Below are positions 36,031 to 62,235 of a stretch of 64,000 nucleotides of DNA, piece after piece. Where the stretch lies: NCBI GenBank assembly GCA_951406725.2, contig OX597818.1, positions 33,666,001 through 33,730,000 of the forward strand. Reading direction: 5' to 3'. Each line of letters starts with the position of its first letter. Position 1 is the first letter of the stretch. The position numbers and the translations under genes were made by a program. Origin of the DNA: Octopus vulgaris. Taxonomy: Eukaryota. The notes beneath the pieces were generated by a model. It did not search any database and was not told the DNA's origin. It saw nothing but the letters and a program-made list of their open reading frames with translations.

Positions 36031-36394
36031 ACTCATTTACGTACGTAATTACTTGATTTTTAGCTTATTAATTTAGACGGGAAATCAGTAAAGATGGCAA
36101 TTTCTAGGCTCTTCAAACATGGTGGAAGTGTAGGGAAGTATATATTTTCAAAAGAGGAATGCGACCAAAATTCTAGTACGTACGTGTAAGTAAGTCCTCG
36201 CGTTTGTGTTCATTTTCGCAGGTTAACAACTGGTGTATTTTCGACCCCGTGACGTAGCGGTGCAGGGAAACAATCCAATAGAACAAAACTTTCTTTCAAA
36301 AATAAATGTTGACTACACACTTCAAGGCTGTACCCTAGCTTACCCGCTAGTGCAAGACTACAAGAAGGACAATATAAATACATGTATGTGTGTA

Positions 36395-36489
<95 letters not shown>

Positions 36490-36652
36490 GTTATCGCCAT
36501 ACTAATATGGCATTCTTATAAAAATAAGAAAAAAGCTGTCCGCTTATTAGCTCCATGAGGCCATCGCCTTAAGTTAGCTATTTGATACACAAACTGTATC
36601 CATATAACCTTCGAACAAGGGAGGTCAGTCGCTCCACACTACTTGACCGGCA

Positions 36653-36694
36653 GCTACAGATGCGTTTCGGAGTATTGCCCCTTTTCAATGCAGC
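36653..36694 (-). ncRNA. Type I hammerhead ribozyme, unit 1 (stem III palindrome mutated, AUC triplet)
   Basis: Minus strand reads GCUGCA UUGAAAA GGGG-CAAUA-CUCC GAAA CGCAUC UGUAGC. Confidence 0.7.
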
Positions 36695-37014
36695 GTAGCC
36701 AGCCAGTAGGTGTCGCTTCCGACAATCTCTGTTCGATGCTTTTATTTACCTAGTTTCGGTGGAATACATCCACTTGTTTTCAATAATAGAAATATTAAAA
36801 TAACTAAGTCTCTCTAAAAGAGAACAACGGCAGCGTTCCCGGAAAATAATAGTTATCGCCATACTAATATGGCATTCTTATAAAAATAAGAAAAAAGCTG
36901 TCCGCTTATTAGCTCCATGAGGCCATCGCCTTAAGTTAGCTATTTGATACACAAACTGTATCCATATAACCTTCGAACAAGGGAGGTCAGTCGCTCCACA
37001 CTACTTGACCGGCA

Positions 37015-37056
37015 GCTACAGACGCGTTTCGGAGTATTGCCCCTTTTCAATGCAGC
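37015..37056 (-). ncRNA. Minimal type I hammerhead ribozyme, U3-A8 core variant, unit 2
   Basis: Minus strand reads GCUGCA|UUGAAAA|GGGG CAAUA CUCC|GAAA CGCG UC^UGUAGC. Stem I is GCUGCA/UGUAGC, extended by UGGCUGGC/GCCGGUCA and CUAC/GUAG. Stem III is the palindrome ACGCGU and the cleavage triplet is GUC. Confidence 0.85.
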
Positions 37057-37376
37057 GTAGCCAGCCAGTAGGTGTCGCTTCCGACAATCTCTGTTCGATG
37101 GTTTTATTTACCTAGTTTCGGTGCAATACATCCACTTGTTTTCAATAATAGAAATATTAAAATAACTAAGTCTCTCTAAAAGAGAACAGCGGCAGCGTTC
37201 CCGGAAAATAATAGTTATCGCCATACTAATATGGCATTCTTATAAAAATAAGAAAAAAGCTGTCCGCTTATTAGCTCCATGAGGCCATCGCCTTAAGTTA
37301 GCTATTTGATACACAAACTGTATCCATATAACCTTCGAACAAGGGAGGTCAGTCGCTCCACACTACTTGAGCGGCA

Positions 37377-37418
37377 GCTACAGACGCGTTTCGGAGTATT
37401 GCCCCTTTTCAATGCAGC
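37377..37418 (-). ncRNA. Minimal type I hammerhead ribozyme, U3-A8 core variant, unit 3
   Basis: Core identical to 37015-37056. Confidence 0.85.
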
Positions 37419-38097
37419 GTAGCCAGCCAGTAGGTGTCGCTTCCGACAATCTCTGTTCGATGGTTTTATTTACCTAGTTTCGGTGGAATACATCCACTTG
37501 TTTTCAATAATAGAAATATTAAAATAACTAAGTCTCTCTAAAAGGGGCAATACTCCGAAACGCGTCTGTAGCTGCCGGTCAAGTAGTGTGGAGCGACTGA
37601 CCTCCCTTGTTCGAAGGTTATATGGATACAGTTTGTGTATCAAATAGCTAACTTAAGGCGATGGCCTCATGGAGCTAATAAGCGGACAGCTTTTTTCTTA
37701 TTTTTATAAGAATGCCATATTAGTATGGCGATAACTATTATTTTCCGGGAACGCTGCCGCTCTTCTCTTTTAGAGAGACTTAGTTATTTTAATATTTCTA
37801 TTATATATATATATATACATCTTATATATTTGTGGTTTTCGTCACTGTTTACAATTATCTTCAAAAAGATTTTTTTAATGTATCGTATAGATGTATTATT
37901 TGACGCTGAATCCGAATTTGATATTCATTTACTCCAGAAAAGTTTTACAGAAGTGTAACAGGTGTTCAAATTTTGAAAATTTTCAGTATTTTCAGCCCAT
38001 CAGAAAACAACAGGTTCGCTGCCTCTTCCATCATTGGAGCAGGGGCATCGGCATGTCAAAACATTAAACTAGCTACAGTAAACAGTGAATAAAAAGA

Positions 38098-44186: not shown

Positions 44187-44227
<41 letters not shown>

Positions 44228-44245
44228 ATTTTATTATATAGAAGG

Positions 44246-44296
44246 AGCTTCTACAGGACTAGTACTGTTTCATTCAAGAGAAATCTTCAGGAAGCT
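44246..44296 (-). ncRNA. Type I hammerhead ribozyme (left palindrome end)
   Basis: Minus strand reads AGCUUC|CUGAAGA|uUUC-ucuu-GAAu|GAA ACAG-uacuaguc-CUGU A^GAAGCU. The core is canonical, stem I is 6 bp, stem III is 4 bp and the triplet is GUA. The first stem II pair is a U-U mismatch. Confidence 0.8.
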
Positions 44297-44703
44297 ATTT
44301 AACAAGAATCGTATTAGCATTTATACATTTAGAGGAGTGGTGGTGGGGGACTTTTTGGGGGTAGGCATAGCGCAAAATATCATACTTGGGGGAGTGGTCA
44401 AGGTAATAAAAAAATAAAAAAAAATAAAAAATAAAAAAATAAAAAAATAAAATAATAAAAAGATAAAATAAAAGAATAAAAATAAAAAATATAAAAAATA
44501 TAAAAAATAAAAAATATAAAAAATATAAAAAATATATATAAATATATAAAAAAATATATATATAAAAATATATATATAAAATATATATATAAAAAAAGGG
44601 GGGATAGAGTTATAGGTAAATAAGGAGATTCTCACTTATACCTATACACACATGTATACGTATCTACACACACATACGCACATACACATATATCTACACA
44701 CAC

Positions 44704-44751
<48 letters not shown>

Positions 44752-45210
44752 CCTACACATACACACATACATACATACAAATATACGTATACATACATAT
44801 ATATACAATCCAATACAGGCCCATTCCCTAATTTTAATTTTATTATCTTCATTTATTACTTTTGTTATCTTTGATCGCTAGGGCTAAGAATCCTGGCAAT
44901 AGCTGCTTGTCCGTTTGTCTGTCTACTAGAAGGCAAGTACTCATTCCCGCACGCACACTCATTAGCACGTACATTCACCCATTCGTACACTCATACACAT
45001 ACACGTACGCACGCGTTATATTCATACATACAAACATCTACATACGTTCACGTATATACACATACGTACTCGTACCTACAGATTCGTGTCTACACTTTAG
45101 GAGGCTAGTCTATACATATACACCAATAAATATACATATATATATATATATATATACCCGCATATACATACACACACACACATATATACTCCTACATACA
45201 GATACATACC

Positions 45211-45252
<42 letters not shown>

Positions 45253-45462
45253 TACATATATATATATACATATATACACATACCTACACATACACACATA
45301 CACATACACACACATACATACACATATATATACATACACAAACATATATACACACACATATATATACATACACACATACACACATACATACGTATACATA
45401 CATACATACATCTATACATCCATACTTACATGCATTTATACGCATACACACACCCATCTATA

Positions 45463-45499
<37 letters not shown>

Positions 45500-45790
45500 T
45501 CACACATACATATACAAATCTACGCACACACATACATACATACACGTATACTCATACACGCACATACACATATACATGCGTACCCATACACGTGCACACA
45601 CGCACGCGCATCCATATAAATACACACACACACATATATATATACACACATATATATACACGTGTGCAAGCATACATACATACTCATACGCGCACACATA
45701 CTTACAAATACATATATGCACACACTTACACACATATATATACATACACATATACATGCATACATACATATATGCATACATACACACACG

Positions 45791-45844
<54 letters not shown>

Positions 45845-46466
45845 TACATAGACATACATACACATACATACACATACACATACGTACACACACATATACA
45901 CATATATATATATACATATATATATATATACACATATACACGCATACATATATACACATATACATACATATACATACACACACACATACATATATACATA
46001 TACACTGATACACATACCCATACATACACATGCATATACTTATATTACTACATACTCACATATATAGACATATATACATATACACACATACACATATACA
46101 TGTACATACACATACGCATGCATATATATATATATATACACACACATATATACACATACATATATATATATATATATATAACATACGTACACACACACAC
46201 ACACATACATATACACATATACATGTATACATACGCAAAAATGATACGCATATATACACATACACACACACAGACAGATGCATATACATACATATATATA
46301 TATATATAACTACATATCTATATAAATACAAACATAATACACATATACACACACATATATATACATTCATGCATATACATATACAAGTATACATACACAA
46401 ACATACACACACACGCGCACACATACATATACACACACACATATACAAATACATACATACACACAT

Positions 46467-46505
<39 letters not shown>

Positions 46506-46901
46506 CATACATGTACACATATACATATGTATATATATATCAACAAGGGAGGGTAAAGTTAATTAGTTATTAATCAATTTCATCAAGTGTTCAGTATGTA
46601 AAGGGACCATTATTATTTTGAGTAAACAATGTTAGAGGAAAAAAATTCTCTAAGTAGTGGAAGAGGCTAAAAAACTTTATTGGCTGCTATTTCTAGAAAG
46701 TTTAGTATGTGGCAAAGTAATTTATTTTATTTTCCTAAGCCCTAATTATATAATATTTTATACATACATACACATACATAAGCACATACATTTACACATA
46801 CATATGCATATACATATATACACATATACATACAAACACATATACACATATACACACACACACACATACAAGCACATACATATATATATACATATATATA
46901 C

Positions 46902-46971
<70 letters not shown>

Positions 46972-47336
46972 GCTTGTATGTGTGTGTGTATATGTGTATA
47001 TGTGTTTGTATGTATATGTGTATATATGTATATGCATATGTATGTGTAAATGTATGTGCTTATGTATGTGTATGTATGTATAAAATATTATATAATTAGG
47101 GCTTAGGAAAATAAAATAAATTACTTTGCCACATACTAAACTTTCTAGAAATAGCAGCCAATAAAGTTTTTTAGCCTCTTCCACTACTTAGAGAATTTTT
47201 TTCCCTCTAACATTGTTTACTCAAAATAATAATGGTCCCTTTACATACTGAACACTTGATGAAATTGATTAATAACTAATTAACTTTACCCTCCCTTGTT
47301 GATATATATATACATATGTATGTGTGTACATGTATG

Positions 47337-47369
<33 letters not shown>

Positions 47370-47890
47370 ATGTGTGTATGTATGTATTTGTATATGTGTG
47401 TGTGTATATGTATGTGTGCGTGTGTGTGTATGTTTGTGTATGTATACTTGTATATGTATATGCATGAATGTATATATATGTGTGTGTATATGTGTATTAT
47501 GTTTGTATTTATATAGATATGTAGTTTATATATATATATATATGTATGTATATGCATCTGTCTGTGTGTGTGTATGTGTATATATGCGTATCATTTTTGC
47601 GTATGTATACATGTATATGTGTATATGTATGTGTGTGTGTGTGTGTACGTATGTATATATATATATATATATATGTGTGTATATATGTGTGTGTATATAT
47701 ATATATATGCATGCGTATGTGTATGTACATGTATATATGTATGTGTGTATATGTATATATGTCTATATATGTGAGTATGTAGTAATATAAGTATATGCAT
47801 GTGTATGTATGGGTATGTGTATCAGTGTATATGTATATATGTATGTGTGTGTGTATGTATATGTATGTATATGTGTATATATGTATGCGT

Positions 47891-47932
<42 letters not shown>

Positions 47933-48019
47933 ATATGTGTGTGTGTGTGTATGTGTATGTATGTGTATGTATGTCTATGTATGTATATGTGTGTGTATAT
48001 ATATATATGTGTGTGTGTG

Positions 48020-48059
<40 letters not shown>

Positions 48060-48571
48060 CATATATGTATGTATGCATGTATATGTGTATGTATATATAT
48101 GTGTGTAAGTGTGTGCATATATGTATTTGTAAGTATGTGTGCGCGTATGAGTATGTATGTATGCTTGCACACGTGTATATATATGTGTGTATATATATGT
48201 GTGTGTGTGTATTTATATGGATGCGCGTGCGTGTGTGCACGTGTATGGGTACGCATGTATATGTGTATGTGCGTGTATGAGTATACGTGTATGTATGTAT
48301 GTGTGTGCGTAGATTTGTATATGTATGTGTGAGTGTGTATATATATATATATATATATATACATATATATAGATGGGTGTGTGTATGCGTATAAATGCAT
48401 GTAAGTATGGATGTATAGATGTATGTATGTATACGTATGTATGTGTGTATGTGTGTATGTATATATATGTGTGTGTATATATGTTTGTGTATGTATATAT
48501 ATGTGTATGTATGTGTGTGTATGTGTATGTGTGTATGTGTAGGTATGTGTATATATGTATATATATATGTA

Positions 48572-48613
<42 letters not shown>

Positions 48614-49072
48614 TATGTATCTGTATGTAGGAGTATATATATGTGTGTGTGTGTATGTATATGCGGGTATATATATATATATATATATGTATATTTATTG
48701 GTGTATATGTATAGACTAGCCTCCTAAAGTGTAGACACGAATCTGTAGGTACGAGTACGTATGTGTATATACGTGAACGTATGTAGATGTTTGTATGTAT
48801 GAATATAACGCGTGCGTACGTGTATGTGTATGAGTGTACGAATGGGTGAATGTACGTGCTAATGAGTGTGCGTGCGGGAATGAGTACTTGCCTTCTAGTA
48901 GACAGACAAACGGACAAGCAGCTATTGCCAGGATTCTTAGCCCTAGCGATCAAAGATAACAAAAGTAATAAATGAAGATAATAAAATTAAAATTAGGGAA
49001 TGGGCCTGTATTGGATTGTATATATATGTATGTATACGTATATTTGTATGTATGTATGTGTGTATGTGTAGG

Positions 49073-49127
<55 letters not shown>

Positions 49128-49520
49128 AGATATATGTGTATGTGCGTATGTGTGTGTAGATACGTATACATGTGTGTATAGGTATAAGTGAGAATCTCCT
49201 TATTTACCTATAACTCTATCCCCCCTTTTTTTATATATATATTTTATATATATATTTTTATATATATATTTTTATATATATATATTTTTTTTTATATTTT
49301 TTATATTTTTTATTTTTTATATTTTTTATATTTTTTATTTTTATTCTTTATTTTATCTTTTTATTATTTTATTTTTTTATTTTTTTATTTTTTATTTTTT
49401 TATTTTTTTATTACCTTGACCACTCCCCCAAGTATGATATTTTGCGCTATGCCTACCCCCAAAAAGTCCCCCACCACCACTCCTCTAAATGTATAAATGC
49501 TAATACGATTCTTGTTAAAT

Positions 49521-49571
49521 AGCTTCCTGAAGATTTCTCTTGAATGAAAAAGTACTAGTCCTGTAGAAGCT
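49521..49571 (+). ncRNA. Type I hammerhead ribozyme (right palindrome end; C>A in stem III)
   Basis: agcttc CTGAAGA tttctcttgaat GAAA aagtactagtcctgta gaagct, followed by aataaa. Confidence 0.7.
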
Positions 49572-49637
49572 CCTTCTATATAATAAATTAATTTTACTCT
49601 GCTATGTATTGAGTACCTTACTTACTGTGGTTAACCC

Positions 49638-49788
<151 letters not shown>

Positions 49789-53129: not shown

Positions 53130-53720
53130 TGCTGAAGATGTCCCTGTCCAAGTATTGTTAAGAAGTGCTTCCATATTTGTAGTTGAAAGGTTCTTTATTA
53201 TCGAAGATGTTTGCAAATTTTATCTATGTAGATAGTTTTCTACTTTGGCTTTCTCTAGTAATGCTGTTTATCTGTGTTGATGTCCAAAGTTACATCTAGG
53301 AATTTGGTTATAGGTAAATTATTGCTAACTTTTACATTTATATCAAACACCTCGAATATAGCAGTGAAAATATTCTTCTCGCTATCTGTACAAGTCGTGG
53401 TTAATAATACTGCATGTGATTGCTAAGCGCCCGTCTCTTGGGAAGGTGTTTTGGAGTTGTTTAAGATTAGTAATTTTACGTTGTCGTTTGCATCAGTACC
53501 ATCATAGCTAGTCGTCGATGAGTTCAACGAATGGCTACTTTCATTTTTGATCCAGTAGGAATCGCTGTGATATATTTGTGTCTCAAATATGTATTATCAG
53601 CTTTTTCAATAGTTGTGGCGAGTTTCTTGCGAAATTCAGGACCTCCAGAAGTGATTTACTCATAGACTGACGAAAGTTTAAGATGTCAAATTAGTTGACG
53701 TTCAAACTCTGCATCTTTGT
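53130..53720 (-). pseudogene. Degenerate Penelope (Poseidon-like) reverse transcriptase fragment
   Basis: Minus-strand remnants in the expected order: FDILNF (FDIVDFYPSI-like), SYWIKNE, SYDG (MGSYDGAE-like) and KFLDVTLDI. Confidence 0.65.
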
Positions 53721-61170: not shown

Positions 61171-61288
61171 ATGCTTACAGCACCTAGGTTTCCCAAGCGG
61201 TCACCCATCTAAGTACTTGCTAGGCTCGGCTTTGCTTAACTTAGGCGATCGGACAAAAACGGTGCATTCAACGTGATATGGCCGTACA
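61171..61288 (-). pseudogene. 5S rRNA pseudogene (isolated, diverged)
   Basis: The minus strand tacggccatatcacgttgaatgcaccg...gtccgatc...aagttaagc...agtacttagatgggtgaccgcttgggaaacc..ggtgctgtaagc aligns with metazoan 5S over ~118 nt with multiple substitutions. There is no oligo-T terminator or tandem array. Confidence 0.88.
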
Positions 61289-62235
61289 TATAAATGCATG
61301 TATATGTATGTGTGTGTATGTGCATGCGTGTGTGTGTGGATGTTCTTGTGTGTATGAACGCGCAAGTGTATTTGTGTAACCGTTCCTGCCTAAAAAGATG
61401 TTCTTGCTGTATGTATTACTATCGTGACAACAATAAAAAAAAATTGTTACTATTTCATCCATAGCAGGAGCAACGGGTTGAGTTACTGAGCACTCTCAGG
61501 GGTTAAATATATTGCTAAGATGCTCTAAACTTGAAATGCCAAAACTGAACTATGTATTTTTACTATATAACCTCTAGAATGTAAGTCAGCGATCCGATAT
61601 ATCAAATACAGCTTATAGAGTCCTCTGAAGGTAATTTTTATTGCCCATACTAAATCAGTTATTATTTGTCGTTGATATATAAAGTAATTTCTTCTTACGT
61701 TTTATTTTTATTCCAACAATTGCTACATATATATTGGGAGGCTAAAAGTGTAACTATCTTAAATTCAACAGCGGCTGACGTGGTGATAGATCACCGAAAT
61801 TTTTAGATAGGCAATAAATTAGCAAGTAGATATCCAATATTTTGTACATTGACTTATATCTTCAGCTTAAAGAATAACTGATAAGAGAAGATGATATTTA
61901 GAAACTCTTAATTAACCCGCCATAGATATTCATATGTGTCTGTGTGTGTGTGCGTATTTGAGTGTTTCAAGTTGAAAGGATGTTAGATTCTTTATGAAAT
62001 AACATTCCCCAAAAAGAAGCAAGTACTAGAGGCGATTCGATTTCCAGTTGGTGTCATAACGTAATCACTGTAAAATGATGAACACAGGTAAAAGAAAATT
62101 AATAATAACAAAGACAATTTTAAGGAATGTGGGTAACTGGAATACTTACCTACTCGTATTTGACAGGTATAATTTTCGATCGGCCAAGAGAAATGGAAGG
62201 TAAGTTGACCTGGGCGGTATTTCTACTCAGAACGC

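Follow-up and report, generated by a model that had tools for sequence, protein, structure and literature searches.

The window analysed here, a 64,000-nucleotide stretch of the Octopus vulgaris genome, carries a hammerhead motif whose core reads UUGAAAA in place of CUGANGA, so that U3 and A8 stand where C3 and G8 are normally found. This locus raises the question of whether the double change preserves the tertiary pair of a working ribozyme, and of what kind of element carries it. We compared the motif with its relatives throughout the 2.8-Gb, microsatellite-rich host genome, and coordinates of the features are collected in Table 1.

Table 1. Features of the hammerhead repeat and its insertion site (window positions; strand relative to the window).
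Feature	Positions	Strand	Basis or remark
Type I hammerhead of unit 2	37015..37056	-	Sequence and folding; helices backed by covariation
Stem I of unit 2, 6 bp	5' arm 37056-37051, 3' arm 37020-37015	-	Sequence
Core of unit 2, UUGAAAA	U3 37050, U4, G5, A6, A7, A8 37045, A9 37044	-	Sequence
Stem II of unit 2, 4 bp with 5-nt loop	37043-37040/37034-37031	-	Sequence
G12-A15.1 (GAAA) of unit 2	37030-37027	-	Followed by CGCG
U16.1 and C17 of unit 2	37022, 37021	-	Predicted cut between 37021 and 37020
Swapped tertiary pair, U3 (37050) with A8 (37045), replacing C3-G8	37045..37050	-	Sequence
Stem III palindrome ACGCGU	37022..37027	-	Predicted inter-hammerhead pairing (dimer)
Hammerhead of unit 1, U3-A8 core	36653..36694	-	Stem III palindrome broken at 36661
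Hammerhead of unit 3, U3-A8 core	37377..37418	-	Sequence
Tandem arm, 2.9 units of 362 nt, 99% alike	36484..37544	-	Ends at short terminus 36484 in (TA)n tract
Inverted 5'-truncated arm, starting inside core at A6	37540..37804	+	Ends at long terminus in (TA)n
Predicted 362-nt monomer between two cut sites	37021..37382	-	Prediction only
(TA)n target tract, left	36403..36486	.	Sequence
(TA)n tract, right, shorter	37802-37818		Sequence

The motif of unit 2 contains every element of the hammerhead core (U4, G5, A6, A9, G12, A13, A14, the A15.1-U16.1 pair and H17), and the canonical type I definition (PMC4209133) fits it, with a helix I of 6 bp, a helix II of 4 bp, and a short helix III with a palindromic loop. 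One G.U pair occurs in stem I and one in stem II. The first-pass annotation had placed the limits of the motif exactly where we find them. It had also described the UUGAAAA core as common to all three units, with U4, G5, A6, A9, the GAAA and the stems intact. The core does recur at 36688 and 37412, but set against unit 2 the other two units show only 4 and 2 differences (~99% identity); because the three units are nearly identical, U3-A8 in the window counts as one observation. The core nucleotides and GAAA were as described, whereas the stems were not intact throughout: the change at 36661 in unit 1 breaks the palindrome and weakens the stem III self-duplex from −7.5 to −2.3 kcal/mol. The further claim that positions 3 and 8 form a Watson-Crick pair, so that C3U plus G8A is compensatory, agrees with PMC3088659, which states that C3-G8 pairs and covaries to U3-A8 in several natural hammerheads, and which cites Przybilski and Hammann 2007 for the in vitro activity of U3-A8.

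A core of this kind might also be a chance match, or a decayed satellite hammerhead with two independent changes. The near-identical tandem copies lend no independent support to a functional motif, and fold z-scores of the isolated motif were weak (RNAfold, −1.2 to −1.8). Stems I and II were present in the RNAfold minimum-energy structure of units 1 and 2, and stem I was absent for unit 3. No Rfam hammerhead family reached its gathering score in the window, nor did any appear at E up to 10 in 36300-38000. Against a chance origin, the full type I descriptor found exactly three sites in the window and none in 100 first-order 64-kb resamples. The counts and alignments that decide the matter follow.

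We examined conservation of the fold at two depths. Five subfamilies with 83-95% mutual identity retained all 12 of 12 core positions, with 24% of columns outside the hammerhead varying (P about 0.04). Taken by themselves, positions 3 and 8 would be expected to stay invariant among these young subfamilies simply through common descent (P = 0.58), and N7 varies among A, C and U. In a 19-row alignment (A1), 4 of 22 stem pairs change on both sides, and U-A occupies positions 3 and 8 in every row (19/19). The paired cells and covariation score of A1 exceeded all 500 shuffles; its count of doubly changed pairs did not stand above them (145/500). In an alignment of wider families (A2), both partners have changed in 11 of 14 pairs, and the share of paired cells is 96%, compared with 29-54% in slid controls. 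Here the 3/8 states were C-G in 8 and U-A in 6 of 14 rows, which had been chosen by paired-core patterns. Loop 2 reads CAA(N)UA in 14/14 rows of A2, these rows having been selected for that loop, and an internal loop follows stem I. Across these alignments, stems I-III show compensatory change.

Stem III behaves in a particular way. It is palindromic across families even though its sequence changes (CGCG, CUAG, CCGG, CAUG and longer forms), and this palindrome and the other core positions are kept across families that are only 42-65% identical. Closing stem III within a monomer was calculated to cost +5.6 kcal/mol, compared with −7.5 kcal/mol for the self-duplex. That is, because monomer closure is costly and the palindrome is retained, the data support the dimer mode described for hammerheads in PMC4209133 and PMC6765202.

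The 362-nt unit belongs to a large family. Among the 40 of 1,186 candidates that were scored we obtained 168 matches, the best of them 99-100% identical and located on many contigs, and the U3-A8 core with window-type stem II matched 1,484 times in the genome; by these matches the genome would hold about 1,500 close copies. Copies range from monomers to about ten-mers and include perfect head-to-tail multimers. Judged from its copies, the repeat is young and very abundant, and U3-A8 is found in its youngest, most abundant subfamilies. Parts of the unit were covered by contigs of four runs guessed to be RNA, which we did not count as evidence of expression.

Metazoan non-LTR retrozymes (Cervera and de la Pena 2020, PMC7229834; bioRxiv 10.64898/2026.07.22.740005) are described as non-coding tandems of 150-450 nt units with GC below 50% and one canonical type I hammerhead per unit, dispersed as monomers to multimers, with a stable predicted circle and PLEs (Penelope-like elements) in the same genome. 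The window repeat is alike in each respect. Its 2.9 units of 362 nt each carry a type I hammerhead, are too short to encode an RT, have 41% GC and are dispersed in many copies, and the predicted circular monomer is strongly self-paired (−110.7 kcal/mol, z = −5.0 against 100 shuffles, 64% of bases paired). A single-pair stem III with a palindromic tetraloop is also known from axolotl HHR_Amex1. The retrozyme class is assigned here from sequence, and the RNA and cleavage features belong to the published retrozymes. Unlike those, the present element has a U3-A8 core, and the main text of PMC7229834 has no passage on 'U3-A8' or 'covariation'.

Insertions of the family are 5'-truncated tandems, usually with an inverted arm. 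In the window, the inverted fourth copy from 37540 is missing U3-G5 together with the stem I 5' arm, so that its core is incomplete, and its long terminus lies 63 nt beyond the short one. In the 20 loci examined, insertions ended at either of two fixed sites 63 nt apart; 26 ends were seen in 18 of these loci, every end ran into TA-rich sequence, and loci with both ends visible had one short and one long end. Any target-site duplication would be masked by the (TA)n target. This layout (tandem or inverted, 5'-truncated, tailed on one side, in a microsatellite) is of the PLE type. Endonuclease-bearing PLEs (Craig et al. 2021, PMC8557442) likewise show 5' truncation, partial tandems, an adjacent inverted copy, a tail at one end and microsatellite targeting, whereas the window element has no ORF and a tail of 63 nt rather than 30-40 bp. 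No ORF with RT and GIY-YIG endonuclease was found in the insertion. The inverted arms, 63-nt tail and (TA)n targeting were not met in the portions of the retrozyme accounts compared (PMC7229834 and bioRxiv 10.64898/2026.07.22.740005). Going by these sequence features, we classify the window repeat as a non-coding non-LTR retrozyme with a Penelope-type footprint, PLE-like in its insertion but not classed as a PLE. This accords with bioRxiv 10.64898/2026.07.22.740005, in which retrozymes are derived from PLE terminal repeats.

The same footprint allows another reading, in which the units are pseudo-LTRs detached from an autonomous Penelope-like element by 5'-truncated insertion and not an independently replicating retrozyme. 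The inverted, 5'-truncated, tailed (TA)n footprint is indeed common to the unit and a PLE-like family in this genome, and it was in PLE pseudo-LTRs that the U3-A8 core was originally reported. We nevertheless judge this origin to be quite improbable, given the perfect head-to-tail arrays, which reach about ten units, and given that no inspected locus joined the unit to a coding flank or an ORF. The hammerhead itself also speaks against it, as a canonical 6-bp/4-bp motif without the extra base after A9, the longer helix II and the shorter helix I of PLE minimal hammerheads (min-HHR). The comparison with the Cercyon PLEs of Schistosoma mansoni (Cervera and de la Pena 2014, PMC4209133) is instructive: they share the swap from C3-G8 to U3-A8 and a predicted dimer mode, but their motifs have all three of those minimal features, lie in PLE terminal repeats, and are mostly single and heterogeneous, whereas the window motif is canonical and sits within a homogeneous non-coding tandem.

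A search with a PLE-like protein fragment yielded two ORF-bearing families in the genome, and among 50 PLE-like loci we found no autonomous element sharing the unit's sequence. Long PLE-like ORFs of 718 and 806 aa lie at L113:3010-5163 (-) and L112:2987-5404 (+), and Pfam returned no fitting match for either. The L113 family consists of near-identical copies whose two fixed ends lie ~70 nt from each other in (TA)n, and its hammerhead core is of the C3-G8 minimal kind. With this footprint, which is like the unit's, the family also resembles HTH_animal/GIY-YIG clusters in the Atlas. It is a candidate helper and no more, because it has neither a fitting Pfam match nor a sequence link to the unit.

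We surveyed positions 3 and 8 genome-wide with a less strict descriptor, which required 4-nt arms in stem II and a CAA(N)UA loop, and with reversed-pattern controls. All four states together gave 3,621 matches, compared with 42 for the reversed control. U3-A8 accounted for 2,804 matches (77%; reversed control 31) and C3-G8, the CUGANGA form, for 344 (9.5%; reversed control 1). The mismatched states numbered 90 for C3.A8 (reversed control 6) and 383 for U3.G8, the last obtained by subtraction from the total. Watson-Crick pairs thus made up 3,148 of 3,621 matches (87%) and mismatches the other 473. The odds ratio of 28 in favour of pairing is descriptive only, because the copies are not independent. 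A 2x2 table among unrelated degenerate motifs (32, 27, 6, 8), which are not independent either, also favours paired states. Positions 3 and 8 do not covary within the young window clade: a single C3-G8 match carried the window's own stem II, compared with the 1,484 for U3-A8, and it was not homologous. When stem III was fixed as CRCG, the window clade held 0 of 65 C3-G8, 6 of 26 C3.A8 and 2 of 19 U3.G8 matches, and at least two of those six C3.A8 matches were truncation junctions. Separately, a group of old and heterogeneous hammerhead-like motifs (L144, L145, L153, L159, L166, L177, L183, L184, L200, L201), which is not related to the unit, seemingly contains all four 3/8 states.

These counts settle several points. 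The reversed control (31 against 2,804) and the compensatory stems, taken with the resamples above, refute a chance match, and a decayed motif is hard to reconcile with the presence of the variant in the youngest, most abundant subfamilies; we regard this whole explanation as extremely improbable. The first-pass annotation had warned that CUGANGA searches would miss the family, which was borne out by the ratio of U3-A8 to C3-G8 matches and by the failure of Rfam to match the motif. Surveys by CUGANGA and Rfam scans therefore undercount retrozymes in this genome. It had also named a majority of copies with unpaired 3/8 combinations as the outcome that would tell against it, and the majority proved to be paired.

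Some C3-G8 families proved homologous to the window unit with the hammerhead cut out: L262 exceeded 200/200 shuffles on both flanks, L252, L251, L257, L217 and L248 did so on one flank, and L222 was marginal. The trees were midpoint-rooted and built from rows picked by pattern. The 54-row tree, from which one of 20 new loci was dropped, required at least three switches of the 3/8 pair, and a single U3-A8 clade was rejected (p-AU = 2.6e-5). A fixed U3-A8 of single origin, suggested by a 35-row tree, was overturned by wider sampling.

Both mismatched states were represented by more than scattered copies. U3.G8 made up 16 of the first 100 listed rows, and among 13 such loci most of the full copies had intact stems and short end branches. 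L288-L298 form a young retrozyme subfamily with the U3.G8 wobble core and a CUAUAG stem III. The tree with U3.G8 loci dropped L286, L287 and L293/L298 in part and kept the chimeric junction row L298. For C3.A8, 26 of the 90 matches were one exact motif on 11 contigs, and six loci (L314-L319) were near-identical, including a tandem trimer at 360-nt spacing and inverted pairs; this subfamily is sister to a 359-nt C3-G8 family (L218-L226). Seven other C3.A8 loci (L301, L304-L308 and L310), which have ~74-80% identity to the unit and a stem III of CUAG, are old members of the window clade. They branch deepest in it, in a position intermediate between C3-G8 families and the crown of U3-A8 copies, and so lie near the base of the U3-A8 group. 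Two U3-A8 rows fall among these basal loci, and two other C3.A8 rows look like back-mutations. The tree with C3.A8 loci left out L299, L247, L250, L248, L249 and 5 of 20 new loci, for lack of an intact stem I or repeat flank, and its bootstrap had not settled.

Judging from these copies, both mismatched states form mobile subfamilies and are not all products of decay. The branching order suggests that the window lineage likely passed from C3-G8 through C3.A8 to U3-A8. The first-pass annotation had taken covariation at 3/8 as an argument for selection on catalysis. Because the swap recurred, with at least three switches and covariation genome-wide, that reading is supported in part. Within the window there is no covariation, and the inference is weaker than stated, since mismatches account for 473 of the 3,621 matches and each of the two mismatched states was mobile. 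The 3/8 pair appears to be favoured, which falls short of its being shown to be required.

We consider it probable that the window contains the hammerhead of a 362-nt non-coding tandem retrozyme, one that likely cuts itself as a dimer and was likely pasted into (TA)n by PLE-like enzymes. Pairs of hammerheads, held together by their palindromic stem III, would cleave multimeric transcripts at C17 and release 362-nt monomers. By analogy with the conclusion reached for other species (PMC7229834), a host ligase would circularise these monomers. Reverse transcription over circles or multimers would then generate tandem arrays, with the RT and endonuclease of a PLE copying the retrozyme RNA into (TA)n. 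U3-A8 would maintain the tertiary pair normally made by C3-G8. Watson-Crick states may be favoured as the better cutters, with mismatched states tolerated and capable of modest spread.

It may be instead that the family spread without efficient self-cleavage, and that U3-A8 came to dominate because a single lucky master carried it. The fold would then have been retained because the Penelope machinery uses it as a structural or recognition signal, or else weak cutting would be enough. Masters with mismatched cores were mobile, and the two fixed insertion ends do not coincide with the predicted cut but lie ~175 and ~240 nt downstream of it. Naiad PLEs proliferate without canonical hammerheads (PMC8557442). 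Moreover, most vertebrate retrozyme dimers tested gave no cleavage: 8 of 9 Xenopus dimers yielded no product in vitro (Li, Clavereau and Pollet 2026, bioRxiv 10.64898/2026.07.22.740005). We find this account unlikely, though not negligibly so. Other core positions and the palindromic stem III are kept across families as little as 42-65% identical, paired 3/8 states recur on separate branches and comprise 87% of matches, and coral retrozymes cleave fast and give circles (PMC7229834).

For the self-cutting retrozyme, the four states suggest a further and more tentative idea, which we hold with somewhat less than even confidence. The family may be a natural and datable record of a catalytic tertiary pair crossing a fitness valley: four mobile 3/8 states, among which the window lineage would have moved along the path given above and amplified most once the pair was restored, with a sister lineage spreading as U3.G8. 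If this is true, either copy number tracks cleavage rate, or cutting can be tuned, or in part dispensed with, as retrozymes spread.

The U3-A8 swap is itself already published, and what is new is confined to the natural series of four states. In S. mansoni, about 1,300 U3-A8 motifs of Cercyon PLEs were missed by the first cuganga descriptor, and the supplement of the same paper gives a PLE motif with a UUGAAAA core (PMC4209133). A saltern variant has U3 and G8 plus an insertion (PMC7151607). Amplified U3.G8 or C3.A8 families were not met among the natural core variants in the portions of Perreault et al. 2011 (PMC3088659) compared, nor did we find any elsewhere in the literature searched; Lunse et al. 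2016 and Przybilski and Hammann 2007 may already cover mismatched cores and their kinetics. The four-way comparison of 3/8 states, which the first-pass annotation wanted engineered, exists in natural, related backbones. It bears on whether self-cleavage rate limits retrozyme spread, a matter left open in the parts of the literature examined.

Other features were observed nearby and in related loci. An inverted arm pair of the L113 PLE-like family occupies window positions 44226-49661, with C3-G8 minimal cores at 44290 (minus) and 49527 (plus); the pair contains no coding sequence that matches the L113 ORF. The RT region of the PLE-like ORF is matched weakly at 53201-53584 (-) (26%, E = 9e-6), and at 61172-61289 (-) there is a 5S rRNA-like copy (75 bits) with several broken pairs, which is probably a pseudogene. 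Outside the window, an open 1,140-aa LINE-type ORF (endonuclease, RT, zf-RVT) lies between two retrozyme pieces at L065:3284-6703 (+).
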